NCBI GenBank assembly: GCA_963842885.1
Contig: CAWJIE010000005.1
Coordinates: 416,001 to 480,000 of the forward strand
Direction: 5' to 3'
Source of the DNA: an uncultured Nitrososphaerota archaeon
GTDB taxonomy: Archaea > Thermoproteota > Nitrososphaeria > Conexivisphaerales > DTJL01
Length of the DNA: 64,000 nt
The position numbers were made by a program, and so were the translations under genes. This document shows, piece after piece, positions 1,055 to 63,307 of the stretch. The notes under the pieces were generated by a model. The model had not been told where the DNA came from and ran no database searches. It saw nothing but the letters and a program-made list of their open reading frames with translations. Positions within the stretch are counted from its first letter, which is position 1, and every line of letters starts with the position of its first letter.

Positions 1055-1099
1055 CCCATTTAAGGTATACGGTGCCAAAAAGCTTTTTGGTGACATGAT

Positions 1100-3957: not shown

Positions 3958-4031
3958 CTTTCTCCCCCCTTTTAAGGCGAACGTATGATGGAGGGAGACG
4001 CACGACCGCCTTCTCGCACGGGCCCTGCTTC

Positions 4032-4340: not shown

Positions 4341-4465
4341 TGATAAATCCGACCCTACACAAATGCACGTGGATTATAAATCTATCTACATCGTACGTCG
4401 GCATCTTGGAAAAAGACTTGCCAGCGTTTTTATATCATCTAGTTCTACCACTCCAAAGGTTTAGG

Positions 4466-5373: not shown

Positions 5374-5470
5374 CCCTCCGTCCTGGGTCGTATCCTGCCG
5401 GCTCCATCCAGATGTTCCAAAGGTTTCGCGGCCGTCACCCATTATATATCGAGGAGGCACTCGAACTGGT

Positions 5471-5947: not shown

Positions 5948-5977
5948 GCCCTGGCTCGAAGCAAGCTTCTATGCAGG

Positions 5978-6457
5978 GTGACGGGGGCCGTGCTGGGCCT
6001 CGCGGTCGCCTACTGCGTCTTCTACCTTCTGCCGCAGTCGTTCGTCCTATTAGCGGCATTCATCGGGGTTTCTACGCCCGCAGGTGCGGTATCGGCGCTG
6101 GCCAGGCTCCAGGACCTGCTCATCCCTGCCGTCGCCATGGGGGTCGCCTATCCCCTCGCCCTGAAGACCAGATACGAGGGCGCCACGGCGACGGTCCTGG
6201 GGTTCGCCGTAGCCTTCTTCCTCCTATATACGTTCGAAGGGGGGTCGATGACCATCACAACGCTCCAGACGACCTCCACAGGGCTGCAGCTGAGCGTCGA
6301 CACGACCTTGAGATTCGCGCCTCTCCTATACCTTAGCTTGGTCCCGATTGCGGTCTTCATCGTGAAGAACTGCTACCTGAGCTACGTCGACATGAAGGAG
6401 GGGGTATCAGTTCCACTTGGTCCAGAAGAACCCGCAGCGCCGGTCAGCTCTGGATAG
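5978..6457 (+). CDS. Hypothetical membrane protein
   Basis: About 4 hydrophobic segments, typical codon usage. Confidence 0.65.
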   Translation: MTGAVLGLAVAYCVFYLLPQSFVLLAAFIGVSTPAGAVSALARLQDLLIPAVAMGVAYPLALKTRYEGATATVLGFAVAFFLLYTFEGGSMTITTLQTTSTGLQLSVDTTLRFAPLLYLSLVPIAVFIVKNCYLSYVDMKEGVSVPLGPEEPAAPVSSG

Positions 6458-6481
6458 GTCATCCTCCGGACGTCTTCTCCA

Positions 6482-6801
6482 GAGTCCTGCTTCTCATCTT
6501 ATGGCAGAACCGCAGGACCGCCGAAGGGAGACCGAGGAGCGATGGAGGAAGACTTGAAGGAGACGGACAGATGGGTGGAGGTCAAGAACCACGGGACGAT
6601 GAAGACGTATTCGATCTCATATCTCAACGCCAACGCCGGCAGAGCCAGGGAGCCGACCGTGGCGGCCGTTGTCGCTCTGGACGGAGCCTCAGAGGGAATG
6701 GTTTTCCACACTTCATCACGGGGGTCGCCCCGCAGAAGGTGAAGATCGGGTTCCATGTCAAGGTTCTCACCTATGGCGGGAAGTTGGAGCTCTCCCTCTG
6801 A
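6482..6801 (+). pseudogene. DUF35-type OB-fold protein, degenerate/frameshifted
   Basis: WVEV..GTMKTYSISY...VAAVVALDGA...H then, in another frame, VKIGFHVK; N-terminal Zn ribbon degenerate. Confidence 0.55.
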
Positions 6802-6821
6802 CCTCGTAAGGTCGAGAGCGC

Positions 6822-8210
6822 CTACTCTTCCATCTTGTGGTTCATGCTCTGGGCGGCCTTCTGACCCGTGCCCATGGCCTGAATGACGGTGGCCTCCCCG
6901 AGCACGACGTCGCCGGCCGCGTAGAGTCCCTTTATCGACGACTCGTAGGTGTCGTCCACCCTGATGAGGCCCTCTTCGCCGGCCGTAGCGAGGCCGGGGG
7001 TCGTCATCTGGATGAGCGGGTTCACCCTGTTCCCGATCGCTATCACCACTGTGTCCGCGTCCTTCATGAACTCCGAGCCTTCCACGGGCTTCGGCCTCCT
7101 TCTCCCTGACGCGTCAGGCTCGCCCAGCTCCATCGACTGAAGCTCAACTCCTTTCACGCTCCCCTTATCGTCGCCCAGGAACCTTGTCGGGGATGAAAGC
7201 ATCATGAACTGCGCTCCCTCCTCCTCTGCGTTGAAGACCTCCTCCTTCCTGGCCGGCATCTCGGCTCTGGTGCGCCTGTACATGATGTAGACTTCGTCAG
7301 CGCCCATTCGGAGGGCCGTCCTGGCGGAGTCCATGGATGTGTTCCCCGCCCCTATCACCACCACCTTCTGCCCGACCTTGACGGGCGTCCCGTACGTGGG
7401 AAAGGAATATGCCTTCAGCAGATTGATCCTGGTCAGGAACTCGTTGGAGCTGTAGATGTAGTTGAGGCTCTCGCCGGGCAGACCCATGAACTTCGGCGAG
7501 CCCGCTCCCGTTCCCACAAAGACCGAATCGAAGCCGTCGTCGAAGAGGTCCTTGACCTTGACCGTCCTGCCCACTATTACGCCGTGTTCGAACTCTACGC
7601 CCTGCCTCTTGAGGGCGTCCACCTCCTGCTCGACTATCTTTTTCGGGAGGCGGAACTCCGGTATGCCGTAGAGGACGACGCCTCCAGGCTTGTGCAGGGC
7701 TTCGAATACCTTGACTTCGTGTCCCTTAGCGATCATCTCCGCGGCCACCGTCAGGCCTGCGGGGCCGCTGCCCACCACCGCCACCTTCTTCCTGCCCTCT
7801 TCGCCGGGCCTTACCTCCTTGGACAGCCCGTTCTTGAGGGCGTAGTCGGCTATGTATCTCTCGACGGCGCCGATGGCGACCGGCTGACCGATGCGGGCGA
7901 GCGTGCACTCCTCCTCGCAGAGGCTCTCCTGGGGGCACACCCTCCCCGAAATCGCAGGGATTCTGTTCTTCTCCCTGACAAGGTCGTAGGCCTTGCCCAT
8001 GTCCTTCTCCTTCATGGCCTTCATGAAAAGCGGTATCTGGGCTCCGACGGGGCAGGCGCTTATGCAGGGCTGCTTAGGGCACTGCAGGCACCTACTGGCT
8101 TCGTAGGCGGCCTCTTCGTCGGTGAGCCCGAGGGCTACTTCGTTGAAGTCCCTGACCCTGTCCTCCGCCGCCCTCTTGGCCATCTGGGCCCGGGGTTGGA
8201 CTTTGCCCAT
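6822..8210 (-). CDS. nfnB: NfnB/SudA (GltD-like) subunit of NADH-dependent ferredoxin:NADP+ oxidoreductase
   Basis: RCLQC...CISACP, GRVCPQE..CE, GSGPAG and GAGNTSMD motifs; adjacent to the NfnA subunit. Confidence 0.9.
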   Translation of the reverse strand: MGKVQPRAQMAKRAAEDRVRDFNEVALGLTDEEAAYEASRCLQCPKQPCISACPVGAQIPLFMKAMKEKDMGKAYDLVREKNRIPAISGRVCPQESLCEEECTLARIGQPVAIGAVERYIADYALKNGLSKEVRPGEEGRKKVAVVGSGPAGLTVAAEMIAKGHEVKVFEALHKPGGVVLYGIPEFRLPKKIVEQEVDALKRQGVEFEHGVIVGRTVKVKDLFDDGFDSVFVGTGAGSPKFMGLPGESLNYIYSSNEFLTRINLLKAYSFPTYGTPVKVGQKVVVIGAGNTSMDSARTALRMGADEVYIMYRRTRAEMPARKEEVFNAEEEGAQFMMLSSPTRFLGDDKGSVKGVELQSMELGEPDASGRRRPKPVEGSEFMKDADTVVIAIGNRVNPLIQMTTPGLATAGEEGLIRVDDTYESSIKGLYAAGDVVLGEATVIQAMGTGQKAAQSMNHKMEE

Positions 8211-9062
8211 CTAGCTCGCCATCCTCTGCTGGAGTAGCTGCATTGCCAGCCCCTCCTCCGTTCTGTACTGCGAAAGCCTCGCCAGCAGCTCCCTGAAGTC
8301 GACCTGGTTGGCGTCGAAGTCCGGCCCGTCGACGCAGGCGAACTTGACTTCGCCGCCCACCCTGACCCTGCAGCCGCCGCACATCCCCATCCCGCATAGC
8401 ATTATGGGGTTGAGGCTGGCCACCGTCTTGACGCCGAAGGGCTGGGTCGTGTCGGCGACGACCTTCATCATTATTGTGGGGCCGACTGTGAAAACCCTGT
8501 CCACCTTCGTTCCTGACTGGAGTATCTCCCTCAAGACGTCGCTGACGAAACCCTTCCTCCCTTCGCTGCCGTCGTCGGTGGCTATCCTAAAGTCGTCGGA
8601 TACGGACTTGACCTCGTCCTTGAAGATCAGCTTCTCGGAAGACCTGGCGCCTATAATGGAGGTGACATGATTGCCGGCCTCCTTCATGGCCCTAGCCACC
8701 GGGTACGCCGTGGCGATCCCGACCCCACCGCCGACGATGACGACGTTCCCGGAGTTCTCGACTTCGGTGGGATTACCCAGCGGTCCCGCCAGATGATAGA
8801 GCTCCTCTCCTTCTGCGAGGAGGCCGAGCTTCCTGGTCGATGCTCCCACCTCGAGGAATACTATCGTGACGGTACCGCGCGACGTGTCCCAGTTCGCGGC
8901 CGTCAGGGGCACCCTCTCGCCTGTTTCCTCGCTCATCACCATCATGAACTGACCGGGCTTGACCCTTGAAGCAAGGATCGGGTTCTCCACCTCAATCAGG
9001 CGCGTCGAAGCCGCCAGGTCGCGCTTGAGGACGATTCTATTCAACGAGGAGGCACCACTCAA
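8211..9062 (-). CDS. nfnA: NfnA/SudB FAD/NAD-binding [2Fe-2S] subunit
   Basis: PGQF, ERVPLT, GPLG, GGGVG, CGMGMCGGC..CVDGP. Confidence 0.92.
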   Translation of the reverse strand: MSGASSLNRIVLKRDLAASTRLIEVENPILASRVKPGQFMMVMSEETGERVPLTAANWDTSRGTVTIVFLEVGASTRKLGLLAEGEELYHLAGPLGNPTEVENSGNVVIVGGGVGIATAYPVARAMKEAGNHVTSIIGARSSEKLIFKDEVKSVSDDFRIATDDGSEGRKGFVSDVLREILQSGTKVDRVFTVGPTIMMKVVADTTQPFGVKTVASLNPIMLCGMGMCGGCRVRVGGEVKFACVDGPDFDANQVDFRELLARLSQYRTEEGLAMQLLQQRMAS

Positions 9063-9334
9063 GCTTATGAGAAATCGAGCTAAAAAGGATGACGAATGTC
9101 GAAATTATTGACCTGTTGTTGGCATCTCGCAAGTTAGAGGCATAACGTGTTGCCAAAGCTCTCATAGCACGCCCGATATCAGCTGATGAGGTAATTATTT
9201 CGCATTTGTTTAATATAGTTTATGTATTTAGCGATTATGACAAAAGGGGCGGAAGGCCCCCAAGGCCCTCCTTCGCGCTGTCTTCATTGCAACAGCAACG
9301 CTAATAGCGCATTGCTCGCTACGGCAGCACGCAT

Positions 9335-10021
9335 ATGGTAATAGCCTGCAAGCTCTTCCGCCTGGGAATGCCCCTCACCCTTGACGGAGCCTATCAGAAG
9401 CTCGAAGGCTTCAGAGTCGAACGGGAAGACGAGGAGACGAAGCTCCAGCTCGTCACCGAGGTCCGCGACCTGAGGTACGAAGGAGGCGTCCTGAGGGGGA
9501 GGATCCTCAAGGATATGGTGATACGAATCAACCAGAGAGACGAATGGAGGCCCGCGCTGCGCACGATGGTGGCCCCGTTCCATTTCAAGGAGGTGGGCGG
9601 AGTCGTCCATCTCTTGATCTTCGAGAAGAAGCCGCGGGCCAACGAGCTGGCCAACGATTTCAGCCGCATACTCTTCCTCAGGCCGGCAGCGGTTGTCGAG
9701 GACAGGATCACCCCCGAGGTCATGGAGAAGTACTTTGAATCCAGCTTCGAGGACGCCCGCGTCGTCTACTTCGATCAGGTGGACATACCCAACATAACCA
9801 AGTTAGCTCTCTACGGCTCTGGACTCTCCGACACGAACACTTACCGGGACTATCTCACTCACGGTCGGCTGTGGTATGTGGTTGTGGCTTCGAAGAGCAG
9901 GAGGTTCATCGTGGGCCTGACAAGGAGTTGCGTGGTCACCGTTTTCACCCAGGTGGACTCCAGCGAGGTGGTCTCCTTCGTGTTCGACGAGGTGGCCCCT
10001 CTGGTCTCGGAATCCAGGTAG
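9335..10021 (+). CDS. Conserved hypothetical archaeal protein
   Basis: 228-aa ORF with genome-typical codon usage, operonic with the phosphoesterase. Confidence 0.75.
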   Translation: MVIACKLFRLGMPLTLDGAYQKLEGFRVEREDEETKLQLVTEVRDLRYEGGVLRGRILKDMVIRINQRDEWRPALRTMVAPFHFKEVGGVVHLLIFEKKPRANELANDFSRILFLRPAAVVEDRITPEVMEKYFESSFEDARVVYFDQVDIPNITKLALYGSGLSDTNTYRDYLTHGRLWYVVVASKSRRFIVGLTRSCVVTVFTQVDSSEVVSFVFDEVAPLVSESR

Positions 10022-10033
10022 GGGTTCGGGGCC

Positions 10034-10780
10034 TTGCCTCTGAGGCTCGTCCCGAACGAGCCAGCGCTTCTGATCGAGGACGACGGAGGCCTGCTCGTCA
10101 TCTCTGATCTGCATCTGGGCTACGAGCGGTCCTTGGAAGCCAGAGGGGTCCACATCCCCGAGCAGACCCGGCTCCTTGCCGAGAGGGTCAAGGCGATAGG
10201 TCGTGAATTCGGGGCGAGGAGGCTCGTAATCCTCGGAGACGTCAAACACGACATCAAGGGCTCCTCCTTCTTCACTTCCCTGGCCGTCACCAGCTTCTTC
10301 AGAGAGATGGAGGAGTTCAAGGAGCTCTACGTAGTTCCGGGCAACCACGACGGAGGTCTGGCCCCTCTCCTTCCGCCCAGGGTCAGGGTCGCCGGGGCGG
10401 GAGGCCTGGCGCTGGAGCTGGCTGAGGGGAGGGCTGGGTTCTTCCACGGGCACGCATATCCTTCGGCCGCAGTCTCTCGAGCCCGCGTGCTAGTCTGCGG
10501 CCACCAGCATCTGATACTCGCGAGGCAGGGGACGCACCAGGGGATCTGGGTGCGGCTGGCCTTCGGGCCCCCATCTCGCGAGCGCACGCTCATCGTGATG
10601 CCAGCCTTCAACACCCTGCTGTCAGGAGTCCCAGCCGCCGATTTCTCCCCCGAGAGGTGGAGGCCCGTCCTGAGTACCTTCCTTGAGGGCCGGCACAGGG
10701 CTGAGGTCTTCCTCCTGGACGGTTCGAAGCTCGGGAGCCTGGATGGCTTGGCTGGAAGGCTCGAGGTGGAAGCGGACTGA
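10034..10780 (+). CDS. Metallophosphoesterase (calcineurin-like)
   Basis: DLHLG, GDVKH, GNHD, HGH, GHQH motifs. Confidence 0.9.
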   Translation: MPLRLVPNEPALLIEDDGGLLVISDLHLGYERSLEARGVHIPEQTRLLAERVKAIGREFGARRLVILGDVKHDIKGSSFFTSLAVTSFFREMEEFKELYVVPGNHDGGLAPLLPPRVRVAGAGGLALELAEGRAGFFHGHAYPSAAVSRARVLVCGHQHLILARQGTHQGIWVRLAFGPPSRERTLIVMPAFNTLLSGVPAADFSPERWRPVLSTFLEGRHRAEVFLLDGSKLGSLDGLAGRLEVEAD

Positions 10781-10825
10781 TCCTCCCGCGCGGTTCTTAC
10801 ATGGCGCAGAACGGATATTAGATGA

Positions 10826-13157
10826 GTGCTGGAAGGTCTGGGAGAAGACAACATCCTCATGAAGCATTTGTCCCACTTCCCAGGTGGCAAAGTCGGGCGT
10901 TCCGCCAAGATCGCGAGCTGCGTCGTGCTAGTCCTGTTCCTACTCTTCGGTTCGCTGCAGCTCGGATCAGCGCGTCTGTCCCCGGCCGATCAGACCTACG
11001 TGATCGTGATGAGGGGAAGTGCCGGGCTCGCCACTCTCCAGCGTTCCATGGACCTCTTCAGTGGCCTCGCCGAGTCAGGGATTCAGGTCGATGTCCTGCG
11101 CTACTTCAACAGCCTCGGGGTCGGGGGCGTGTTCAACTCCTCTAGCGAGGTGGCCTCGAAGATCGGGAGCCTCCTCCGGCCGATGGTGCTGCTCCAGTCG
11201 GGTCCGGTCAGCCTGGGCACCGACGCGATTCTCTCCGGCGAAGCCGTGGACGGCTTTGATTATTCAATCGACAGCAACGTCACGGGGGCGGGCGTCAAGG
11301 TCGCCGTGATTGACACAGGAGTGGACTACACTCATCCAGCGCTGGGCGGAAGCATGGGAGTGAAGGTCGTGGGTGGATACAACTTCGTCAACAATAGCTA
11401 CGATTTGATGGACGAAGACGGCCACGGCACGGCCGTCAGCGGAATTATCGCCGGAAACTCCTCCACGTTCAAGGGGGTGGCACCCGGCGCGCAGCTTCTC
11501 GTATACAAGGTCTTTTCGAACGGGACGACCTCCACCCAGCTCATAGTGGAAGCGCTCGACCAGGCTGCGAAGGACGGCGCCAAGGTGGTCAACCTGAGCC
11601 TGGGAGGGGGTTTCACTTCAGCCTCCCTCAACTCGCTGGGTGAGCTTCTCTACTCTCAGGGCATCGAGCTGGTGGCGGCCATCGGCAACGACGGGCCAGA
11701 CTCGGCCAGCACCGAAGCCCCCGGGGACCTCCAGTACTATCTCGGCGTGGGCGCTTCGGTGAGCCTCGCCACGACGGACCCCCAGGCCGAGGCCATGATC
11801 GGCGGCAGCGTCCTTGAAACCGCTATCCCCATGAACGACACGCCCCTCTCAGCCGGTGTGCTCAGCGGGCCGACGACTTTCATTGGCAACGCGAAGCCCA
11901 GCCAGGTGGCGGGGCTGAACCTGACTGGCCGGATAGCCGTCGCCTTAAGGGATCACATTACTCTTTTCTCGACGATGGAGCAGGACGCCGCCAGCGCGGG
12001 CGCCATGGCGCTGATCGTCGTCAACGACTCCCCTCTCAGCTTCACTGAGAATGGGACGACGGGTGGGCCGGCCCTTGCCTCCAACAGCTCGTCGTACAGC
12101 CCTAGGATTCCCGTCGTGGCCATATCCGGTGCCGAGGGAAGCGCCATAGCCAAGTCCTCTGGCGACGGCACAAACGTCTCCCTGGCGGTCTTCAAGCCCT
12201 CCAGCACGCTCTATCCCGCTGAGTTCTCCTCCATCGGTCCGGCCGACGATTTCACCATCAAGCCCGAGGTCCTCGCCCCGGGCGACTCCGTCGTGGTTCC
12301 CCTCTTTGGTTCGTCCGGATACGTGGAGGGGTCCGGAAGCAGCTTCTCAACCCCGCAGGTGGCGGGGACGCTCGCCCTCCTGGCCCAGATCCACCCTAAC
12401 ATCACCGCGGAGGAGGCCTTCTCCATGGTCACCCTGAGTGCCACCGTGGGCCAGGGCTATTTCGGCACCTTCCCCCTCGAGGTCCAGGGGGCTGGCATCC
12501 TAAACGTCAGCAGGACGGTGAGCCTGCCGTTCTTCCTGGACCTCCATTACCTCATGTTGTTCCCGTCCACTGGGCATGCCTACTCCCAGGATCGTGGAAG
12601 TGACTGCCTTCCAGGGGGGCTCTTCGCTGTCCTTGTCCTACACGGGAAGCTATCCGCTGAACTTCTCCTTCACCCCCTCCGGAAACGGCTCCTCGACTTT
12701 CACGGTGACGGCGCCTCCCTCCTCCTCTCTCGACCAGAGCGAAGACCACGTGATGCTGAGCTGGGGGGGCTCCATCTACAACCTGCCCGTGCGCCTGGTC
12801 CCCGGCTCCTTCTGGCTGGGCTACGACGCCGCTTCAGGGGAGCTCTATTCGTCGTATCAGGGCTCGAGCGATGCCGTCCTGACCATAGTGAGGCCCGACG
12901 GCTCGATCCTGCAGGGGACCCTGTCTTCGACGCATAACTTCTCGCTGCTGCCCGACCTCACGGGCTTCTACAGGGTAACGCTGTCGCTATCGGGCTCAGG
13001 CGGCCTCCAGGTCGGTCATCTGATAGTCCTGTCCGGCGCGAGCTCACAGCCAGGCGGGGCCTTCGGGGCTGGAGGAGTTCCCGGACTTCGTCCCTCTGGG
13101 GGTAATCATCTTCTTCGGGCTGGTGGTCTTCGTCGCCCTCGCGGTCTACGCCCTTGA
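10826..13157 (+). CDS. Secreted S8 subtilisin-like protease with PA domain (frameshifts near 12585 and near the 3' end)
   Basis: Signal/TM segment; triad VAVIDTG / GHGT / GSSFSTPQVAG; PA insert; frame continues in ORF 12576..13157. Confidence 0.88.
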
Positions 13158-13168
13158 GGCGCGAGTCG

Positions 13169-14393
13169 TCAGAACTGCAGCGCCACCGTTGGCTCGTGGG
13201 CCTTGACGGAGCGCAACCTTCGCGCCAGGTTGGCCCTCAGCTCCTCTATAGTGGAGAACCTCTTCACCACCCTGCCCTCCCTGATCATGGGAGAAAGCAG
13301 CGAGACCTCCCCCTTCGGCACTCGACTCTCGCTCCTGACCAGGGTGTCCTTCATCGTCGAGGGGTCCCTGTGGACGTCCTTGGCCCCCGAGAGGTCGCCC
13401 CTCTTGGCCCTTGGGACGAGCTTCCCGTCCTTGTCCTCGATCTCCACCAGCTTCATGTTGAAGTCGATCGTGGGCGCGCAGGCGACGCTGGTCCCGACCC
13501 CGAAGCCGTCCACGACGTCACGCAGCTCTCTGACCTCCTTTTCATCGATGCCTCCGGACACGAATATCTTGACCTTCTTCGCGCCGCGGACGTTCAGCTC
13601 CCACCTCACCTCTTCGATGATCTTCCGCCATTCGCCACGTCGCGTCGACGGCGTGTCCAGCCTCACGGCGGCCAGCCTGTTCGCCGAGCGTCTCCCAAGC
13701 GAGGATGGCCTCCGTCTTCTCGTCGAAGAGCGTGTCGGCGAGGGCGATGCGCGGGATGCCCTTAGGGAGGGCCTCGTCGAAAGCCCTCCAGGCGTCGGCC
13801 TGAGAATCGAAGCAGAGGATGAACGAGTGGGGCATGGTTCCCGACGCGGCTATCCCCAGCAGCTCGGCGCCGATGGTGTTGGAGACGCCGTCGAAGCCCG
13901 CCATGTAGGCCGCCCTTTCGATGAGGGGCGCCAGAGCCGGGTGGGCCCGCCTCGTCCCGAAGCTCAGGAGGCTCTTGTCGCCCGCCAGCAGCTTGATCCG
14001 GGCCGCCTTCGTCGAGAACCCGCTGCTGCTGCAGAGGAAGCCGAGGATGGGCGTCTCGAACCTAGCGAAGTACCTGTACCTCCCCCTGATCCTCAGTACG
14101 GGCTCGTAGGCGGCTGTGTCCCTGGATGTCACGAAGACCTCGCCTTCCTCCATGGCGTCCACGTCCACGGGGAGGCCTTCAAGGAGCTTGGCCACTTCGT
14201 ATATGCCCGTGACGACGCCCCATTCGCTGTCGTAGGGCACGTGCCGCGTGTAGACCTCCATGGTGACCATGGGGTTCATCTCCCTCATCTTGAGGGCCTG
14301 CTCAGTGTTGAGGAAGTAGAAGTCGGTGACCGCGCCGCCCTTGATCTCCTCGTCCTTCGCCACCCAGAAGATCCTGTCAGAAAGGTCGTTCAA
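13169..14393 (-). CDS. pncB: Nicotinate phosphoribosyltransferase (frameshift near 13680)
   Basis: TDFYF, SFGTRR, GTMPHS, RLDTPS, SGG, GFGVGT motifs across two ORFs. Confidence 0.92.
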
Positions 14394-33602: not shown

Positions 33603-33854
33603 CTATATGGGCTGGCGTTTATCGGTTGGCAGACCCTTAACGGCCCTCCAGTAGCAGTGCTTGTTTTTTCCCGTGCGGCCGTCCTTCCTGTGCCTGAACT
33701 CCCAGTAGAAATACGGGCCGCCTTCAGGGTTCTTCCCGGTACGTACAGTCAGATAGGGCCTCCACGACGCTCGCCCGCACTTCGGACACTTCACTAGGTC
33801 CCCCTTCTCCTCGAGTTCCATTCTGAAACCGTCCTTCTCCAACACCTGCAACAA
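33603..33854 (-). CDS. Small C2HC zinc-ribbon protein (paralog 1)
   Basis: CPKCGR...RTGKNPE..Y.Y..F.H..D.RTG.NK.CY; clear homolog at 48357..48587. Confidence 0.75.
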   Translation of the reverse strand: MLQVLEKDGFRMELEEKGDLVKCPKCGRASWRPYLTVRTGKNPEGGPYFYWEFRHRKDGRTGKNKHCYWRAVKGLPTDKRQPI

Positions 33855-38464: not shown

Positions 38465-38968
38465 TTGCCGCAGTTTTATAGCTTGGCGCGGACGAAGCTG
38501 CGTTTCACTTTGAACGGGAACAAGGTCGCCATCTCCGCCCCCCCAGCGAAGACGCTTCTGAGACTCTTGCGTGAGGACTTCGGCCTCACTGGCGCCAAGC
38601 CTGGCTGTGAGGCGGGCGAATGCGGCGCATGCACGGTCCTCTTGGACGGCCTCCCTGTGACGTCGTGCATGGTGCTCGCTTCCCAGGTGGAGGGACGGGT
38701 TGTGACCACGGTCGAAGGGCTGGAGAGGTCGGGCGAGCTCGACGCGATCAGGCGGTCGTTCGCGTCCGAAGGGGCGGTTCAGTGCGGCTATTGCATACCC
38801 GGCTTCGTCGTGACTTCATATGCCGTTATCAAGTCGAACGAGCTCGGTGGCTTTGCTTCGCTCAGAAAGGAGCTGGAAGGGAACATCTGCCGCTGCGGAG
38901 GGTATCCGAAGATCATGTCGGCCGTCCGGAAGGCGGCCAACGCCTCTGAAGAGAGGAGGAAATCTTGA
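38465..38968 (+). CDS. [2Fe-2S] small subunit of a xanthine dehydrogenase/CoxS family enzyme
   Basis: GCEAGECGACTV, QCGYCIPG, GNICRC. Confidence 0.93.
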   Translation: MPQFYSLARTKLRFTLNGNKVAISAPPAKTLLRLLREDFGLTGAKPGCEAGECGACTVLLDGLPVTSCMVLASQVEGRVVTTVEGLERSGELDAIRRSFASEGAVQCGYCIPGFVVTSYAVIKSNELGGFASLRKELEGNICRCGGYPKIMSAVRKAANASEERRKS

Positions 38969-39836
38969 GATACTCGCAAATAGGGGTCAGCTCCCCACGG
39001 AGCCTCGGCCAAGCGCTCGAGCTCCTTGCCTAGACGTGGCGAAGAATTGCGGGTCATATCGGGGGGCACGGACGTCACCGTCTACCTGAAGGATGGCATC
39101 CTCAAGGAATCTTGCCTTCTGAATTTGAGCAGGCTGAAGGAGTTGGATTACATTCGCGACGAGGGCGGATTCTGTCGCGATAGGCGCGCGTGTCACGTTC
39201 TCCGGGTTGGTGCGGAGCCGAATCGTCCGGCGCTGGGCGCCTCTTCTGTCAGAGGCCGCCGTCGAAGTGGGCTCCCTCCAGATACGAAACCTCGCGACGC
39301 TGGCGGGGAATATTTGCAACGCCTCTCCTGCGGCGGATTCTCTGCCGCCTCTGTACGTCCAAGGCGCGACCGTCGTCCTGACTAGCGCCGAAGGGAAGCG
39401 GGAGCTAACGATGGAGGAGTTCGTGTTGGGTCCCAGGAGGACGGCGCGGAGGCCTGGGGAGCTACTTACAGAGGTCAGGGTCCCCAAGATGGCGTCTGAC
39501 TCTCGCTACTTCTTCAAGAAGCTGGGATTGAGGAGTTCTCAGGCTATTTCGGTGGTTAGCGTTGCGGCCTCTTGGAAAAGGAGGAATGCGAAGATTGCGC
39601 TCGGTGCTGTCGCTCCAACTGTCGTGCGTGCGAGGCAAGCTGAAGCGTTTGTATCTAGATATGGTTTGAGTTTGAAGAGCATTGACGAAGTGTGCTTCCT
39701 AGTGTCGAAGGCCGCCTCCCCCATAGACGACCTCAGAGGGTCAAAGGGTTACAGGCTGGAGGCAATCAGGGCGCTTTCGTTTGAGGGCTTCTATGAACAG
39801 CTCGCAGGAGCGGGGATTGATGCGTGTAAAGCTTGA
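38965..39836 (+). CDS. FAD-binding medium subunit (CoxM/XdhB family), frameshifted near 39030 and 39175
   Basis: SGGTD, QIRNLATLAGN.CNASPAAD, GAVAPT, PIDDLRGS..YR. Confidence 0.9.
39690..39707 (+). repeat. GTGCTTCCTAGT motif copy 1 (intragenic)
   Basis: GTGTGCTTCCTAGTGTCG, identical over 18 bp to the copy at 63128-63145. Confidence 0.9.
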
Positions 39837-40044
39837 ACTGGGGGGTCCCCTCCGCGAGGAGAAGGGCCAGTGGCATTCGCTCAGGCTGTCAGTCGGTTCG
39901 ACTGTCAGCGATGCCCTTCGCAAGGTCGGAGTGACCGAGGAGCTCTACATCGTCGTGATGAGGAACGCGAAGAGGGTGGAGCTTTCCGAAGTCCTCGCCG
40001 AGGGGGACGTCTTAGTGGCTTTTCCACCGGTCGGAGGGGGTTGA
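39820..40044 (+). CDS. MoaD/ThiS/SAMP ubiquitin-like sulfur carrier
   Basis: Beta-grasp size; ends FPPVGGG. Confidence 0.88.
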   Translation: MRVKLELGGPLREEKGQWHSLRLSVGSTVSDALRKVGVTEELYIVVMRNAKRVELSEVLAEGDVLVAFPPVGGG

Positions 40045-42335
40045 GTCTGAAGACGGACAAGAAGTGGATATCACGTTCCCTTCCCCGCATAGACGGCGAG
40101 GGGAAGGTGGACGGGTCCGTCAATTTCTTCTCGGATCTCTATCCGCCCGGTTGCCTTTACGCCAAGACCGTGCGTTCTCCTTTGGCCAGGGCAAGATTGA
40201 CCGGTATCGACACCTCCAAGGCCGAGGCATCGCCGGGAGTGCGTTGCGTTGTGACGCATAGAGACATCCAGGGACTGAACGGCTACGGCGTCTTCTTTAC
40301 TGACGCGCCGGTCCTCTGCTTTTCCGGCGTCAACTACGTGGGAGATCCCGTAGCGCTCGTCGCGGCAGACTCCGAAGATGCGGCGGCCAGAGCCGCGGAG
40401 CTGGTCGAAGTGGGCTACGAGGAGCTCCCAGCAGTCCGTAGTATAGAAGAGGCCTTAGAGCCGGGGGCCCCGGCCTTGCATCCAGAAGGCAACGTCGCAC
40501 GTAGCAACGTAATCAGGAGGGGGAGGTTCGAAAAGGCCGTCAAGGAGGCTCGCCATGTGCTGCGGGGCTTTTATGAGACGCAGAAGCAGAAGCATATGTT
40601 CATAGAGCCTGAGGCGGGGCTCGGCTACGTGGACGGCGGTGGAGTCGTGAACCTCTTCGTCGGGGGCCAGAGCCCGTTCAGGGACGTTCTCCAGGTGGCG
40701 AGGAGCTTGGGGTTACCGAAGGAGAAGGTGAGGGTGGTGAGTTTTCCCATCGGAGGCGCTTTCGGTGGCAAGGACGAGGTCACGGTGCAGATACACCTCG
40801 CTCTCCTCGCCCTGAAGTCTCGGAGACCTGTGAAGCTCATGTGGAGCAGGGAGGAGTCGGGAGCAGCAGGCTTCATGCGGCATGCCTTCAAGCTGGAAAT
40901 GGAGACGGGCTTTGACAGGGATGGCAAGATAGTCGCGAACCGTGCGAAGATTCTTGCGGACACCGGACCCTACCGTTCCTTCGGGCCGGCCGTCCTCGAC
41001 GTGGCCATGGAGACCGTCAACGGACCCTATTTGGTGCCCAACTTCATCATCGATGCGAAGCTGGTCAGGACCAACAACGGCCTCTCAGGGGCTTTCAGGG
41101 GTTTCGGCGCCCCCCAGTCGAACTTCGCCATCGAAGGGCAGATGAGCGCGGCTGCCGAACAGTTCGGTTTCGACAAGGCCGAAGTGAGGAAGAGGAACCT
41201 GTGGAAGGAAGGAAAGGAGGGCAACTTCGGGAAAAAGCTCGTGGACTGCGACGGTCTCGCGGAGTGTCTGAGGCGTGCATCCTCTTCTCAGTTGTGGAAG
41301 TCCAGGGGGAGCCTGAGGTCTAGTAGGCCATGGCTCAAGAGAGGTGTAGGTCTATCCCTAGCCGTGAAGGGTATGGGGTTCGGAACCCTTCCAGACTACC
41401 CGTCAGCGGCCGTCGAAGTCGACCCCCGGGGTCAGGTCACAGTTGGGTTCTCCAACCCAGACTATGGGCAGGGGCTGGTGACGACGAACATGCAGATAGT
41501 TGCGGAAAGGTTGGCTGTCCCTTTGACCTCGGTGCACGTCATCGACGCCGACTCTGGGATGGTGCCCGATACCGGGAGCAGCAGCGCTTCACGAAGCACC
41601 TACACTTCGGGAAACGCCCTTCTGAAGGCCTGCGAGGTGGCCATCTCCGTGCTGAGGGTTGAGGCGGCATCAGAGCTCGGGCTCGGCGTGGATGAGCTTA
41701 CTTATAGCAACGGAAAGTTCATGGGCAAGGGCAGGGAGAAAGACATCTTCAGGCTCGCCAAGTCGATGAGGTTAAGAGGTCTCTCCACCAGATTCGTTGG
41801 GACCTTCGAAGTTCCGCGCCACATGTCCACAGTGAAAGGATCTTTGGAGATACCACACTTGATCTACAACTTCGCGGCACTCGTGGGCGAAGTTGAGGTA
41901 AACACTCTCACTGGCAAGGTGGCGGCTAAGAGATTCATGTTCTTCCCTGACATAGGGAGGGTCCTCAATCCCGTCCTGGCTTCCGCTCAGTGCGACGGAG
42001 GCATTACGCAGGGGCTAGGCTATGCATTAACCGAAGAGCATGTCTACGTCGAAGGAGTCCCAAAGACGACGAACTTCACCACCTACCTCGTGCCCTGTTC
42101 TACGGATTCCCCCGAAGAGATATACACCGAATTCATTACGTCCTGCCTGGACTCGGGTCCGTTCGGAGCCAAGGGCGTGGGTGAGATACCTATCATCCCT
42201 GTGGCGAGCTGCGTGGCTGATGCCGTTTCAGATGCTACCGGGACAAGAATATCTTCCATACCGCTCAAACCCGAAAAAGTCTTGGCCGCGCTGTCCAGGC
42301 AAGCCTCTGAACGCAAGTCGGAACGATGGCCTTGA
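40041..42335 (+). CDS. Molybdopterin-binding large subunit, xanthine dehydrogenase family
   Basis: GGAFGGK, GAFRGFGAPQ, YGQG, SSASRST, GGITQGLG, GAKGVGE. Confidence 0.94.
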   Translation: MSLKTDKKWISRSLPRIDGEGKVDGSVNFFSDLYPPGCLYAKTVRSPLARARLTGIDTSKAEASPGVRCVVTHRDIQGLNGYGVFFTDAPVLCFSGVNYVGDPVALVAADSEDAAARAAELVEVGYEELPAVRSIEEALEPGAPALHPEGNVARSNVIRRGRFEKAVKEARHVLRGFYETQKQKHMFIEPEAGLGYVDGGGVVNLFVGGQSPFRDVLQVARSLGLPKEKVRVVSFPIGGAFGGKDEVTVQIHLALLALKSRRPVKLMWSREESGAAGFMRHAFKLEMETGFDRDGKIVANRAKILADTGPYRSFGPAVLDVAMETVNGPYLVPNFIIDAKLVRTNNGLSGAFRGFGAPQSNFAIEGQMSAAAEQFGFDKAEVRKRNLWKEGKEGNFGKKLVDCDGLAECLRRASSSQLWKSRGSLRSSRPWLKRGVGLSLAVKGMGFGTLPDYPSAAVEVDPRGQVTVGFSNPDYGQGLVTTNMQIVAERLAVPLTSVHVIDADSGMVPDTGSSSASRSTYTSGNALLKACEVAISVLRVEAASELGLGVDELTYSNGKFMGKGREKDIFRLAKSMRLRGLSTRFVGTFEVPRHMSTVKGSLEIPHLIYNFAALVGEVEVNTLTGKVAAKRFMFFPDIGRVLNPVLASAQCDGGITQGLGYALTEEHVYVEGVPKTTNFTTYLVPCSTDSPEEIYTEFITSCLDSGPFGAKGVGEIPIIPVASCVADAVSDATGTRISSIPLKPEKVLAALSRQASERKSERWP

Positions 42336-45308: not shown

Positions 45309-46286
45309 TCACATACGCCTTGAAATAGTGCGGCGGAAGCTCTCGAGATCCTCGCGCTTGACAATCCTCGCATACGGGTCAAGACCGGCCCCTGAAATGC
45401 CAATCGCTATCGCTTCAGTGTTAGTGAAGACCCCCGGGGTGCCATTCCTATCGATCACTATAATACCCCCAGTGTTGTCCCCGAAGAGCCTCCCCATCTC
45501 CTGTACGGCCTTCTTTGCGGCCAAAGGCGCCGGGTTCTTCGACGCAATTAAGCCAACGGCCCTAAGACAGAGGCCACACTTAATGATCATTTCTCCGACG
45601 CCCGTGGCCGACGCCGCACCAACATTCCCCATGGCATAGTAACCCGCCCCGGCGATTGGAGAATCGCCCATCCGGCCCGGCAGCTTGAATTGCATACCGC
45701 CGGTGCTTGTGGCGGCAGCTAGGCCCCCGTCCTGGTCCAAGGCGACGGCTCCCACGGTGTCGGATGGTGCGGCGGCCCTCAGGTAGTTGCGATCCAGTCT
45801 CCCAATCCACCCCTGCTGCGACGAAGAGAGGTAGGACCTCCAACCCTGTTGGAAGGCCTCCGCCTTCTCTTTGGTGGGTAAGAACTTCTCCCTCAGGCCA
45901 TAGGCTTCGGCTAGCTTCTCGGCACCAGTAGAGACCAAGATGACGTGAGCGGTCTTCTCCATTACTATCCTAGCTAGTTCGACGGGGTGGGGGACGTCTC
46001 GGACGCACCCGACTCCGCCAGCGAGCAGCCTCTCACCGTCCATGATCCCCGCATCTAGCTCGATGTAACCTTCATAGTTAAGCGCGGCTCCCCTTCCAGC
46101 GTTAAGGACGCCCGAATCCTCCATCACCCTGACGGCGGCGACGACAGCATCGACAGCACTGCCCTTCCTGAGGGTCGAAGCCCCGGTCTCCGCCGCGTCT
46201 TCAAGAACCTTCCTGGCTTCTAGTGCAGCTCCTTCGTTCAAAGTCCAACGGCCGGCACCCCCTTGAACCACCATTTTGCCGTTCAA
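45309..46286 (-). CDS. Isoaspartyl peptidase/L-asparaginase (Ntn hydrolase)
   Basis: GGAG, NAGRGA, ELDA.IMDG, DTVGAVA, TSTGG, GR.GDSP. Confidence 0.92.
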   Translation of the reverse strand: MNGKMVVQGGAGRWTLNEGAALEARKVLEDAAETGASTLRKGSAVDAVVAAVRVMEDSGVLNAGRGAALNYEGYIELDAGIMDGERLLAGGVGCVRDVPHPVELARIVMEKTAHVILVSTGAEKLAEAYGLREKFLPTKEKAEAFQQGWRSYLSSSQQGWIGRLDRNYLRAAAPSDTVGAVALDQDGGLAAATSTGGMQFKLPGRMGDSPIAGAGYYAMGNVGAASATGVGEMIIKCGLCLRAVGLIASKNPAPLAAKKAVQEMGRLFGDNTGGIIVIDRNGTPGVFTNTEAIAIGISGAGLDPYARIVKREDLESFRRTISRRM

Positions 46287-46741: not shown

Positions 46742-47029
46742 CTATGCGTTTTCCTGTTCGATGCCGGCCGAGTCGCCATAGCCGCATCCGCAGGCCATCG
46801 TGTTCGTGAGCACGAAGTGCTTGTCTTCGCCCTCTATAACAAGGTCGATCTCCGCTTGTTCAAGGACCTCCGCGGTCCGCTTGTCTGTCGGGACAAAGAC
46901 ATCTCTTCCGTTGAAGATCAAGTCACCTCCGGGGACTTTGTCGACTAGGAACATGCAAAGTGCTAGGTTTACTTGGTCCGCCTGTTGCATGGAGAAACAG
47001 ATTGCCTCGTACTTGCTTTCAGATAGCAT
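46742..47029 (-). CDS. HesB/IscA-like (A-type Fe-S carrier) domain protein, degenerate
   Basis: D..F.G..VFV...T...LE...ID...F...N...CGCG. Confidence 0.6.
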   Translation of the reverse strand: MLSESKYEAICFSMQQADQVNLALCMFLVDKVPGGDLIFNGRDVFVPTDKRTAEVLEQAEIDLVIEGEDKHFVLTNTMACGCGYGDSAGIEQENA

Positions 47030-47143
47030 TCCCTTAAATTTGTCTGTTTTTGCTTTATTAAGTGTAATAAGTGTAATACTTACGAAGTTTGAGTTCGATT
47101 TGGTTTGATGTTAACTTTGTTTATTTTTTTGTTCTGTGATATT

Positions 47144-47158
47144 GTGTGCTTCCTAGTG
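47144..47158 (+). repeat. GTGCTTCCTAGT motif copy 2
   Basis: GTGTGCTTCCTAGTG after a T/G-rich tract. Confidence 0.9.
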
Positions 47159-47214: not shown

Positions 47215-48045
47215 TTGAGGAGGAAAATCCGCGACTACGAAAGAGACCTTTGGGCACTGTTCTGGAGTTATTCCAATAGCGGCGAATTCAGCGAGATCCG
47301 GACTTACCTCCTCCAGCGCAGTGGACTCCCCGGGCCCAGGGGAAACCTCGAGCTAGCAACTGCCTTCGGGAACGTCATTCAAAGAGGTGTCGTCTCTGGT
47401 GCCCTCGATTCCAAGGAACTCCTCTCGCTCTGTCAGAGCCTGTGCCAGATACCTCCCGCACTGGCACCCACAAACGATCCCAAGGAGTTCTTGGTGCTCT
47501 GCGGAACATGCGGGCTGGGAGCCCTCGGGACCGTGGCAGCAGATTTCCAAGCCGTCGCTTCCAGTCTGAGCTCCTTAGCCGGCGACCTAAGATGGAGAAC
47601 TAGGGAGGGGGTTGCCATGGCCCTTCAGCGGATGATCGACGCAAAGCCAAAACAGACCCTAATGCTACTCGCCCAGTGGGTTGAAGTAAATGACCCCCTT
47701 CTCCTTCGAGCCGTCGTCGCGGGGGTGGCGGAGCCGAGGCTCCTCCGCAACGACGATGTAGCCCGGTCCGCCCTCGGGCTTCACCGGAGGATTTTCGAGA
47801 GGCTTTCGGAACTTGACCGCGAAGGCGACGACTTCAAGGCTCTAAGGAAGAGCCTCGGCTACTCTCTGAGCGTAGTCGTGGCTTCTTCGCCTAGGGAGGG
47901 CTTTGCTTTGATGAATGAGTTGGCTAGGAATGAGGATCATGATGTTATCTGGATAGTGAGAGAGAATTTGACGAAAAAGAGACTGGCGAAGTGCTTGGAT
48001 AATTTGGATACTGTGAAGAAGATACTTTCAAGTAAGCAGGTTTAG
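47215..48045 (+). CDS. HEAT-repeat-like helical protein
   Basis: SGLPGPRGNLELA, DLRWRTREGVAMALQR, AEPRLL, W.VRENL.KKRL. Confidence 0.75.
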   Translation: MRRKIRDYERDLWALFWSYSNSGEFSEIRTYLLQRSGLPGPRGNLELATAFGNVIQRGVVSGALDSKELLSLCQSLCQIPPALAPTNDPKEFLVLCGTCGLGALGTVAADFQAVASSLSSLAGDLRWRTREGVAMALQRMIDAKPKQTLMLLAQWVEVNDPLLLRAVVAGVAEPRLLRNDDVARSALGLHRRIFERLSELDREGDDFKALRKSLGYSLSVVVASSPREGFALMNELARNEDHDVIWIVRENLTKKRLAKCLDNLDTVKKILSSKQV

Positions 48046-48149
48046 CCGTTGCATTGTGAAGTGTCTTCTACGTGTCTGGTCTCTTGTATATTGATTCTTT
48101 TGTGTTAATTTATTGAATTGGGTTTTGTTTATAGAGAAGGGTTGGTTGT

Positions 48150-48163
48150 GTGTGCTTCCTAGT
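48150..48163 (+). repeat. GTGCTTCCTAGT motif copy 3
   Basis: GTGTGCTTCCTAGT after a T/G-rich tract. Confidence 0.9.
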
Positions 48164-48356
48164 AGGAGGCTGGGCAGGGTGGCTCTGAGCTGCCTTGGTG
48201 TTGTCCATTAGAAGCGTTCTCGACCCAGCAGTCTGGGCAATCAAGCTCGGGTATTTGTCAAGCATGCAATGGGGATGCTTTAGGTGTTGAGCGCGATTTA
48301 GCCTGTCATCAGGGGGACCCGGTAATCGGCGGCGTGCCTACGGGTCATCAGTCGGC

Positions 48357-48587
48357 GTGGACAACTTTATGTATCCAAGAAACGTGGTGTTGTCCGTGCC
48401 GCGACAGAATCTGATCAGGTGCCCTAAGTGCGATAGGCTGGCTTGGAACCCTGATATCGCTATCAGGACCGGTAAGAACCCCGAGAAGAAGTACAGCTAC
48501 TACAGATACAGGCACCCTCTCGACAGGCGGACCGGCCGCAACAAAACGTGCTACGTCCCGGTCGTCAAGCCCGACCCCAACCACTAG
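48357..48587 (+). CDS. Small C2HC zinc-ribbon protein (paralog 2)
   Basis: CPKCDR...RTGKNPE..Y.YY..RH..D.RTG.NKTCY; stop codon lies inside the ACTAGGAAGCAC motif. Confidence 0.75.
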   Translation: MDNFMYPRNVVLSVPRQNLIRCPKCDRLAWNPDIAIRTGKNPEKKYSYYRYRHPLDRRTGRNKTCYVPVVKPDPNH

Positions 48588-48594
48588 GAAGCAC
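48582..48594 (-). repeat. GTGCTTCCTAGT motif copy 4 (inverted)
   Basis: CACTAGGAAGCAC on + strand, followed by an A/C-rich tract. Confidence 0.9.
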
Positions 48595-48681
48595 CCCATC
48601 AAACCAACAACTGCTCTCAACACTCTTAACAATAAGAATTCGAATTTACATAAAAAGATTCTCCCTTATCAATATAACGTA

Positions 48682-49098
48682 TCATTTCCCTCGAAACGCA
48701 TCAGCCTTACGCAACAAAATCTTTATGTTTTCATAAATAGTTGCTCTCATAGCCTCTTCCAAGGTCATCCAAACGAAATCCCGGTGTTCATTCGAAATCT
48801 TCACGTTGACGCTGTCAGTATAACCCAGGTAATATCGTACAGATTTATGAACCTTAGCTCCCCCTGGCCGCAAGTAGAAGTAAGTAATTTTCTCCGCGAA
48901 CCCGTCGACGAGCTTTATGTCAGGGAGGCCCGTTTCCTCCCTTGCTTCTCGGACCGCCGCGTTCAGCTCCGACTCACCAATTTCGATGTTGCCCTTGGGA
49001 AAGTCATACTTCGACTTGTCGTTTCTCAGCAATAGGTACTTGGTGACTCCATCCTGGGTATGGAAGACTACTACCCCAGCCGAACGCTCTTCGAGCAA
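48682..49098 (-). CDS. NUDIX hydrolase (Ap4A hydrolase-like)
   Basis: PKG.IE.GE....AA.RE.REETG Nudix box, S.EH. Confidence 0.92.
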   Translation of the reverse strand: MLEERSAGVVVFHTQDGVTKYLLLRNDKSKYDFPKGNIEIGESELNAAVREAREETGLPDIKLVDGFAEKITYFYLRPGGAKVHKSVRYYLGYTDSVNVKISNEHRDFVWMTLEEAMRATIYENIKILLRKADAFRGK

Positions 49099-63048: not shown

Positions 63049-63127
63049 CGCCGCCTATCCGCTAAGAAGACAGGTAATAAACCGTTTGCCATCCTACTTA
63101 GTTGACAACCGCCTAGATGTGGCTGAC

Positions 63128-63145
63128 CGACACTAGGAAGCACAC
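63128..63145 (-). repeat. GTGCTTCCTAGT motif copy 5 (inverted), upstream of the SMC operon
   Basis: CGACACTAGGAAGCACAC on + strand, followed by an A/C-rich tract. Confidence 0.9.
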
Positions 63146-63307
63146 ACCAAAACAACTCCAAAATTCAACAACAACTATGCGAATGGAACCCAGAGCAAGA
63201 GAAGCTAACAGAACTCATGAAGCGGTAGAAAGAAGCACAAATGCCGACCCTAACCATAAGGCCCCAGTGCCCAAGAAACAAGACGGCCGCCGCACCTGTC
63301 GGCTCTC

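Follow-up and report, generated by a model that had tools for sequence, protein, structure and literature searches.

The locus described here raises the question of why GC3 falls locally in coxM, a gene that encodes the FAD-binding subunit of a molybdenum hydroxylase, and recovers sharply at position 39690, exactly where a short DNA motif begins. An earlier, sequence-only reading had attributed the T-ending codons upstream of the motif to in-place mutational pressure, caused by the motif and filtered by purifying selection. This interpretation is supported in part by the present analysis and is, in our view, the best reading available. In the form that we prefer, and to which we give a probability of about one half, the motif is a polar, probably protein-bound site with a strand-specific C-to-T pressure acting 5' of it.

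The coxM locus

The window, i.e. the whole stretch of 64,000 nucleotides analysed here, corresponds to G000:C5:416001-480000 and belongs to a 2.03-Mb, 87%-complete genome whose nearest named records are MAGs of Conexivisphaerales and Nitrososphaerales archaea. A CoxS - CoxM - ThiS-like - CoxL operon is found at 38465-42335. The coxM product (P0001) contains a FAD_binding_5 domain (PF00941, E=3.9e-33) followed by a CO_deh_flav_C domain (PF03450, E=8.1e-15), both above the curated cut-off. The gene shares its operon with a 2Fe-2S small subunit (38465-38965, matches to Fer2_2 and Fer2) and a molybdopterin-binding large subunit (39870-42332, matches to Ald_Xan_dh_C, MoCoBD_1 and MoCoBD_2), and both the domain order and the neighbourhood are those of a CoxM protein. 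In the window coxM is not a single intact frame: it is split into three frames by extra single bases near 39029 and 39170. The orthologues have open frames of 285-319 amino acids. Contigs of the sequencing runs X1 and X2 have one base fewer at both positions, and those of X4 at the first only; since the X1 and X2 contigs are without the extra bases, the frame breaks may be assembly errors or strain-specific. A search with Rfam at gathering thresholds gave no matches in the window, and ARAGORN found there a single tRNA-Gly (45688-45790).

The basic description given by the sequence-only reading is accurate. The motif encodes V-C-F-L-V-S in the coxM frame (GTG TGC TTC CTA GTG TCG, 39690-39707), the T-ending and TTG codons listed upstream are present at 39639-39683 and the C-ending ones at 39711-39734, and the GAVAPT and PIDDLRGS motifs run through the site in a single continuous frame.

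Copies, orientation and conservation of the motif

The 15-mer, or a form of it with one mismatch, occurs five times in the window (Table 1), and no exact copies were found elsewhere in the genome. When up to one mismatch was allowed, the 14-mer gave one further genome match, on contig C3, and a reversed control pattern also gave one. The five copies are spread over 24 kb and fall into two orientation groups, three on the plus strand followed by two on the minus strand, i.e. they face inward towards a small zinc-ribbon gene. The core GTGCTTCCTAGT is non-palindromic, and the site is therefore polar.

Table 1. Positions of the motif copies, their compositional zones and two genes of the locus, in window numbering.
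Feature	Position	Strand	Remarks
coxM	38965-39836	+	FAD-binding subunit of a CoxSML-type molybdenum hydroxylase; three frames in this assembly
T3-rich, C3-poor patch, 65 codons of coxM	39495-39689	+	adjoins copy 1 upstream
Motif copy 1, GTGTGCTTCCTAGTG	39690-39704	+	within coxM (V-C-F-L-V); core GTGCTTCCTAGT at 39692-39703
T-rich, C-poor zone of copy 2	46995-47143	+	overlaps the N-terminal codons of the minus-strand IscA-like gene
Motif copy 2	47144-47158	+	56 nt 5' of the HEAT-like gene
T-rich, C-poor zone of copy 3	47863-48149	+	last 60 HEAT-like codons and spacer
Motif copy 3 (ending in AGTA)	48150-48164	+	105 nt past the HEAT-like stop codon
Small zinc-ribbon protein gene	48357-48587	+	between inward-facing copies 3 and 4
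Motif copy 4, GGGTGCTTCCTAGTG	48582-48596	-	its CTAG is the stop codon of the plus-strand zinc-ribbon gene
T-rich, C-poor zone of copy 4	48597-48864	-	spacer and last 60 NUDIX codons
Motif copy 5	63131-63145	-	between the PfkB-type kinase and SMC-like ATPase genes
T-rich zone of copy 5	63146-63281	-	region C5:479115-479281

The arrangement is conserved within the genus. All five motif places are syntenic in G003 and most of them in G002 and G004, and the two-group orientation recurs, mirrored, in G003. The intact core is common to fifteen copies; in copy 3 of G002 there is a mismatch within it. Among other genera of the family, one match with one mismatch was found in each of G005 and G006, and none in G007 and G008. 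Viral contigs contained 21 single exact matches to the 15-mer, a number that we take, by our own estimate of the collection size, as chance level. The copies lie at transcription-unit boundaries, where they follow the HEAT-like, NUDIX and PfkB genes and precede the HEAT-like, zinc-ribbon and SMC-like ones, and in G003 short T runs are found 3' of the motif.

The HEAT-like and NUDIX genes converge on the zinc-ribbon gene, which is kept between the inverted copies in G002, G003 and G004. Its family is present in five of the eight genomes of the same family and in none of the 32 other relatives searched. A paralogue (33627-33806, minus strand) has a weak match to Zn_ribbon_recom, below the curated cut-off, and in a protein atlas the zinc-ribbon protein resembles unnamed archaeal clusters. 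By its position, the zinc-ribbon protein is a candidate motif binder. The HEAT-like protein resembles unnamed HEAT-repeat clusters in the same atlas (0.97); its likeness to DNA-alkylation-repair families (0.88) is a lead only.

The motif within coxM

The sequence-only reading had presented the motif as a copy placed in the gene. The orthologues point the other way: they have GAG GTG TGC CTT CTA GTG (G004), GAG GTT TGC TTC CTA GTG (G002) and GAA GTG TGC CTC CTA GTG (G003) at the same place. Judged from these codons, the motif in coxM is ancestral coding sequence (E-V-C-F/L-L-V), common to the orthologues.

Three of the four motif codons whose amino acid is invariant are identical in all four species, as compared to 17 of 112 in the rest of coxM (Fisher p=0.016). 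CTA accounts for 6% of the Leu codons of the genome, and among the 16 invariant Leu columns of coxM it is the sole one with the same codon in all four species. Because of this excess of codon identity and the conserved rare CTA, the motif word in coxM is considered to be under constraint at the nucleotide level. The intact 12-nt core, on the other hand, is found in coxM of G000 only, the three orthologues having 1-2 mismatches there.

An inserted mobile element or MITE was rejected: the 33 residues from GAVAPT to PIDDLRGS are colinear with those of the orthologues, without an indel. There is also no homology among the flanks of the five copies, as for nine of the ten pairs at least 24 of 300 shuffles scored as high (1 of 300 for the remaining pair). 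Together with the normal amino-acid identity of the patch (see below), these results bear out the earlier claim that the T-rich flank is no inserted element.

The T-ending codon patch

Genome-wide, the third codon positions contain T 0.133, C 0.407, A 0.122 and G 0.339, with a GC3 of 0.746. Against this background the 20-codon windows between 39495 and 39689 have 6-8 T-ending codons of 20, where 2.2-2.7 are expected from the genome codon use for the same amino acids; in the windows just past the motif the count is 1 of 20, with 2.8-2.9 expected. The 65 codons that precede the motif have a T3 of 0.35 and a GC3 of 0.52, and in the last 29 of these T3 reaches 0.41 and GC3 drops to 0.38. The four-fold sites of the patch are T15 C5 A3 G9, compared to an expectation of T4.6 C13.7 A4.0 G9.8.

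By itself, the coxM patch is unusual without being singular. Of 952 long ORFs, 69 contain a 60-codon window as rich in T3 as this one (0.84% of all windows), or 25 if only genes with an otherwise normal composition are counted. For a given coding position, the probability of finding such a window directly upstream is 0.4-0.8%; here and below, the zones of 60-65 codons were picked after inspection of the data.

Relative to the majority of the orthologues, the 50 comparable codons of the patch have gained T 15 times and lost it once; of the T gains 9 are from C, 4 from G and 2 from A. Upstream of the patch the counts are balanced (12 to T and 14 away, 87 codons), and downstream there is 1 of each (35 codons). 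As the synonymous sites are saturated at this distance, the parsimony count of T gains is weak evidence either way. The sequence-only reading had proposed a comparison with orthologues that lack the motif. The outcome favours that reading, as the three coxM orthologues have a broken core and no patch: in the same 65 codons their T3 is 0.18, 0.11 and 0.12, and in the last 29 codons 0.21, 0.14 and 0.17. The amino-acid identity of the patch to these orthologues (0.74, 0.62 and 0.65) is similar to that of other species pairs (0.63-0.69), and since this identity is normal, no foreign donor is indicated. Of the proposed in-place mutational pressure, the part concerning place and direction is thus upheld, i.e. 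the patch arose in place, in this lineage, and by directional change (15 to T and 1 away).

Zones at the other copies

The flanks of the remaining copies show the same tendency. The four intergenic copies in G000 are preceded by 80 nt with T 0.42-0.51 and C 0.05-0.17. A T content of 0.42 or more over 80 nt is reached in 0.079% of the stranded windows, which form 165 regions genome-wide, and four of these regions adjoin the four intergenic copies. When 17 copies are averaged, T rises from 0.20 to 0.26, 0.29, 0.29 and 0.37 over positions -200 to -1, C goes down to 0.14, and A and G remain flat; the values reset directly past the motif and the composition downstream of the copies is normal. The extremes of the G000 flanks in this profile are T 0.47 and C 0.07.

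Two zones extend into the 3' ends of genes. In the HEAT-like gene, T3 is 0.35 and C3 0.08 over the final 60 codons, whereas the part before them has 0.14 and 0.42. Over the final 60 NUDIX codons T3 is 0.35 and C3 0.15, as compared to 0.15 and 0.33 in the part before. At four-fold sites the HEAT-like zone contains T10 C2 A2 G8 (expected T3.1 C9.4 A2.4 G7.1) and the NUDIX zone T10 C2 A5 G7 (expected T3.3 C10.0 A3.3 G7.4). A T3-rich 3' end with a normal remainder is found in 9 of the 952 long ORFs, and one that is also C3-poor in 3 of 952, the HEAT-like gene included. The coding end of PfkB in G000, which lies beyond the spacer of copy 5, is unaffected (T3 0.13 in its last 60 codons).

In the orthologues, strong zones are seen in the HEAT-like and NUDIX genes of G002 and in NUDIX of G003 (T3 0.53 in its last 30 codons), and mild ones in HEAT-like of G003 and NUDIX of G004; there is no T3 rise in HEAT-like of G004 (0.17 vs 0.16). 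The flank of copy 3 in G002 is T3-rich despite the mismatch in its core. Note that the four genomes (G000, G002, G003 and G004) are kin, so that these cases are non-independent.

Kind of change and strand

The kind of change was read from four-fold sites. In the G000 zones of copies 1, 3 and 4 these 78 sites are T35 C9 A10 G24, where T10.9 C33.1 A9.7 G24.3 are expected, i.e. the T:C odds are raised about twelve-fold (35:9 vs 10.9:33.1). Pooling of the four genomes gives T93 C51 A32 G82 against expectations of 37.2, 108.3, 30.1 and 82.5, the relatives shifting likewise, although the expectation tables are built from only 1423 codons for G002 and 834 for G004. A model in which only the C:T split changes fits well (p=0.99 for G000, 0.93 pooled). 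The data reject models in which T is favoured (p=1e-3 and 2e-5, respectively), C is disfavoured (p=2e-6 and 2e-10) or A+T is favoured (p=7e-6 and 1e-8). The flanks outside coding sequence are slightly depleted in G as well, and the C:T-only fit is poorer there (p=0.002), yet it is better than that of the other models.

A shift confined to the C:T split is expected if the C-to-T rate is raised on one strand, and is not expected under ordinary selection for T-rich or AT-rich tracts. A mutational cause is therefore favoured, as the four-fold sites change in nothing but the C:T split; selection with a specific preference for T over C could also be a source of such a shift. As to the earlier claim that the motif causes the mutations, motif and flank are linked by association.

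The strand can be judged at copy 2, whose zone contains a single gene, which is IscA-like and encoded opposite to the motif. In the 32 N-terminal codons of this gene A3 is 0.38 and G3 0.12, as compared to 0.23 and 0.24 in its remainder, and their four-fold sites are A8 T3 C1 G0 (expected A1.3 T1.7 C5.0 G4.0). As the only gene of this zone runs opposite to the motif, the skew appears to follow the motif strand and not the coding or non-template strand, which in turn speaks against a cause at the level of codons or mRNA and against simple coupling to transcription. The argument is a moderate one, because this is a single case and gene starts are AT-rich for other reasons too. The N-terminal skew is absent from the IscA-like genes of G003 and G004, which are normal there.

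Variation among close strains

A metagenome contig (L053) that is 98% identical to the window carries the same patch, and 7 of its 10 differences from the window lie within it. The patch is also present in contigs of two runs. In the X1 contigs, 6 of 9 differences are in the patch, which makes up 195 of the 913 nt (p=0.004), and when the variable sites of 39393-39900 are pooled, 9 of 13 are in the patch (p=0.024); the X3 and X4 contigs cover the stretch partially. Variants polarised by the orthologues, read on the coding strand over 38900-40100, include 5 C-to-T changes in the patch out of 7 (p=0.002). Since G/A differences are about as frequent as C/T ones, we read the strain data as raised variability with no strand bias.

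Proposed mechanism

In the reading that we prefer, GTGCTTCCTAGT within its 15-nt word is a conserved polar site and would most likely be the seat of a tightly bound protein. The motif strand would experience a strongly raised C-to-T rate over about 200-280 nt 5' of the site. The likeliest cause would be that this strand is repeatedly single-stranded there, so that its cytosines deaminate, and this may happen if a machine that arrives from the 5' side stalls at the site; a replication fork would be the best fit. Between genes the outcome would be a T-rich, C-poor tract, and within genes purifying selection would let the change pass only at free positions. Because only such positions are spared by selection, coxM and the HEAT-like and NUDIX genes would go from C- to T-ending codons, and the IscA-like gene from G to A.

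A more specific version, which we regard as a long shot, holds that the five copies are an archaeal counterpart of a Ter-type cluster of fork traps or pause sites, that the zinc-ribbon protein binds them, and that the footprint stems from exposure of the lagging-strand template. Forks from either side would pause at the copies, the lagging-strand template behind the fork would remain single-stranded for about one Okazaki-fragment length, and its deamination would rewrite synonymous codons. On C5 the orientation-corrected cumulative residual of third-position T-A peaks at 459,628 (0 of 2000 permutations reach its range) and that of G-C at 468,410 (80 of 2000 permutations); both peaks are inside the copy cluster (455.7-479.1 kb), and the sign of the zone skew is that of the regional skew on each side of the cluster. 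On the 172-kb contig C17 of G003 the skew switch is not significant (1279 and 813 of 2000), and both the relation of skew to gene orientation and the signs near the two orc1/cdc6 genes are inconsistent among contigs. The fork-pause version fits the inward arrangement and the C5 skew, and we treat it as a weak lead.

Should the preferred reading be true, a short word would shift the local mutation spectrum in a directional, one-strand manner, recoding three genes and altering some amino acids. Such zones would then provide a computational marker for DNA that is repeatedly single-stranded beside a bound protein. They would also call for caution in analyses of codon usage and selection: a rare-codon patch can be the mutational footprint of a neighbouring DNA element, and need not mean translation control or gene transfer. 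We know of no sequence-specific fork barriers in Archaea, which makes the lead of particular interest in this domain, and if the fork-trap version were true, the cluster would be the first example in Archaea of a system that pauses or terminates replication at specific sequences, and it could be read from sequence composition alone.

Alternative explanations

The main rival, a possible explanation to which we give clearly less credence than to the mutational one, is that the T-rich tract is itself a selected part of a composite cis-element, such as a tract that unwinds or bends next to a protein-binding site, an element for termination or at a boundary, or an upstream promoter tract, and that coxM was recoded by selection to provide it. 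The constraint on the motif itself, the location of the copies at transcription-unit boundaries and the short T runs past the motif in G003 would all agree with this. A termination role would also be in line with the operon-internal terminators that are common in one archaeon (157 of 410 operons; PMC10450193) and with aCPSF1, which is reported to act jointly with U-tracts (PMC8716108). Against a composite element, A and G are exactly at expectation at the four-fold sites and the T-favoured, C-disfavoured and A+T-favoured models are rejected. A U-rich signal at the RNA level fails at copy 2, where the T-rich strand is the template and the mRNA is A-rich. The coxM copy has no oligo-T terminator: this would call for some 5 or more consecutive T, and no T run in 39495-39689 is longer than 3. 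A terminator between coxM and coxL, within the operon of one enzyme, would also have no obvious use.

Transcription-associated deamination, which we consider improbable, would explain the zones by a roadblock at the motif behind which RNA polymerases queue or R-loops form, so that the non-template strand is exposed. C-to-T change on the non-transcribed strand is a known signature, and at copies 1, 3, 4 and 5 the upstream genes do run towards the motif, with the non-template strand being the T-rich one. At copy 2, however, the only gene of the zone runs the opposite way and the T-rich strand is its template.

Coincidence, i.e. an ordinary rare-codon patch in coxM and AT-rich spacers of the usual kind that are next to the motif by chance, is unlikely, somewhat more so than a transcriptional cause. 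Equal patches do exist in 69 (by the stricter count 25) of the 952 long ORFs, 165 T-rich regions are without a motif, and the finding was picked after the fact. Nevertheless, a window of this kind just upstream of a given coding position is expected in 0.4-0.8% of cases, the flanks of all four intergenic copies are of a type found in 0.079% of windows, the same C:T-only shift is seen in two more genes and in the orthologues of three species, and a 3' end of this type occurs in only 3 of 952 long ORFs.

The weakest alternative is a patch recombined into coxM from a lower-GC donor: the local drop of GC3 with its sharp recovery at 39690 might suggest it, but it is very unlikely given the normal amino-acid identity, a shift from C to T only and not towards A+T, the same patch in L053 and in the contigs of two runs, and the similar zones at the other four copies.

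Several other candidates were rejected. An archaeal origin is not indicated: the Cdc6_C matches are on other contigs (C4:344.7 kb and C3:234.2 kb), the copies extend over 24 kb with the AT-rich tracts outside the inverted pair and not between its members, and the plain GC skew on C5 follows gene orientation; the motif may bear some likeness to ORB. An Xer/dif site was set aside, as there is no tyrosine recombinase near the window. TATA-like words can be picked out by eye for an internal promoter of the ThiS-like gene, but the zone begins at least 130 nt before the ATG.

Comparison with known systems

The preferred reading, a polar and probably protein-bound site with a mutational zone on one side, has analogues in Ter sites, deamination skews, embedded binding sites, Chi and the targets of diversity-generating retroelements, and the motif zone belongs to none of these families. 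Among the papers surveyed on this order, strand asymmetry, archaeal termination and lagging-strand mutagenesis, none described a motif-anchored one-sided C-to-T zone, and we make no claim of its absence from print.

The closest likeness in layout is to Tus-Ter of E. coli and RTP-Ter of B. subtilis, polar replication fork barriers made of short non-palindromic sites, in several copies, that form two opposed groups facing a centre. The present sites are likewise non-palindromic and fall into two opposed orientation groups. In Ter systems the gene of a small DNA-binding protein lies beside the innermost sites, and here the zinc-ribbon gene is in that position and its protein is a candidate by position. 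The differences are that homology of sequence or protein is lacking, that the copies belong to an archaeon and span only 24 kb, and that fork arrest is hypothetical here. As far as we are aware, C-to-T footprints next to Ter sites have not been reported.

Diversity-generating retroelements likewise alter a 3' gene tract on one side of a boundary motif (IMH), but they do so at template-adenine positions and need a template repeat and a reverse transcriptase. This candidate was rejected, as there is no repeat among the flanks and no RVT_1 match in the 87%-complete genome.

Chi, as acted on by RecBCD, is polar, and the single strand that results is 5' of the word on its own strand, which is the geometry of the zone seen here. 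Chi is however frequent genome-wide, whereas here there are five copies at one locus, and RecBCD is not known from archaea.

Strand-asymmetric deamination skews share with the zones a strand-specific exchange between C and T, with A and G untouched here. Known skews are weak and replichore- or gene-wide, whereas the effect described here is anchored to a word of 12-15 nt, is one-sided and extends over about 200-280 nt. Finally, in binding sites embedded in coding sequence a word is likewise kept in frame, a rare codon included; in coxM, by contrast, the flank effect reaches 65 codons and behaves like a shift in a single mutation rate, not like sequence selection.

Integrity of the cox operon genes

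The coxM gene, which encodes the FAD-binding subunit, is split over three reading frames by single extra bases at positions 39029 and 39170, while its orthologues are intact and 285-319 amino acids long. Contigs from two sequencing runs (X1 and X2, about 99% identical to this stretch) are without the extra base at both places, and a contig from a third run (X4, likewise about 99% identical) is without it at the first place, 39029. Two readings account for the breaks: the assembly went wrong at two-base runs, or the gene is broken in this particular strain. At the 3' end of coxM, the stop codon is overlapped in the relatives by the ATG of the ThiS/MoaD-like gene; in the genome studied here (G000) coxM continues for 6 more codons.

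Features in the window
Feature	Position	Strand	Remark
Paralogue of the zinc-ribbon gene	33627-33806	-	conserved block also upstream
ThiS/MoaD-like gene	39820-40044		74 aa, Gly-Gly at the end; between coxM and coxL
tRNA-Gly(CCC) call	45688-45790		103 nt
IscA-like gene	46742-47110	-	extent judged by orthologues
Region with the conserved block CAATGGGGAT.CTTTAGGTGTTGAGCGCGAT	48165-48356		cross-species; upstream of the zinc-ribbon gene
TTTATTA word, putative TATA box	63075-63081	-	SMC-like gene starts (TTG) about 30 nt downstream

Gene starts close to the motif copies

Comparison with orthologues suggests that the IscA-like gene has about 30 further codons ahead of its first ATG (47029), which take it into the T-rich tract. 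This extension showed no ordinary start codon, and many of its residues are Lys, Asn, Thr or Ile, amino acids with A-rich codons.

The TTTATTA word is likely to be the TATA box of a near-leaderless transcript of the SMC-like gene, in which case motif copy 5 would sit about 50-65 nt upstream of the TATA box. The approximately 45 nt following copy 5 are kept in two relatives of the same genus (G002 and G003), including a second CTAG and TTGTCAA.

The tRNA-Gly(CCC) call exceeds the length of a plain tRNA and so probably contains an intron.

Skew and composition along the contigs

The cumulative gene-strand bias peaks at about 445-485 kb of contig C5 (approximately 29000-64000 in the window), as do the plain GC skew and the cumulative orientation-corrected T-A and G-C skews at third positions. 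The range of the T-A curve on C5 was matched by none of 2000 permutations; the peak was not reproduced in G003. It is possible that replication changes direction in this region.

Of the 165 T-rich 80-nt regions in the genome, many cluster on both strands in the first 13 kb (1-13,200) of another contig, C2. This AT-rich island could be of foreign origin or a contaminant introduced by binning.

Repeats upstream of the zinc-ribbon genes

Besides the conserved block, these upstream regions contain a short box, GGTGTTGTCC, that is repeated and also occurs as its complement. Genomes that are more distant have a different box: several copies of GTGTTGCCACC are found in G005 and several of ATGACACAAAC in G006. 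The boxes resemble operators or iteron-type repeats, and they seem to change along with the protein.
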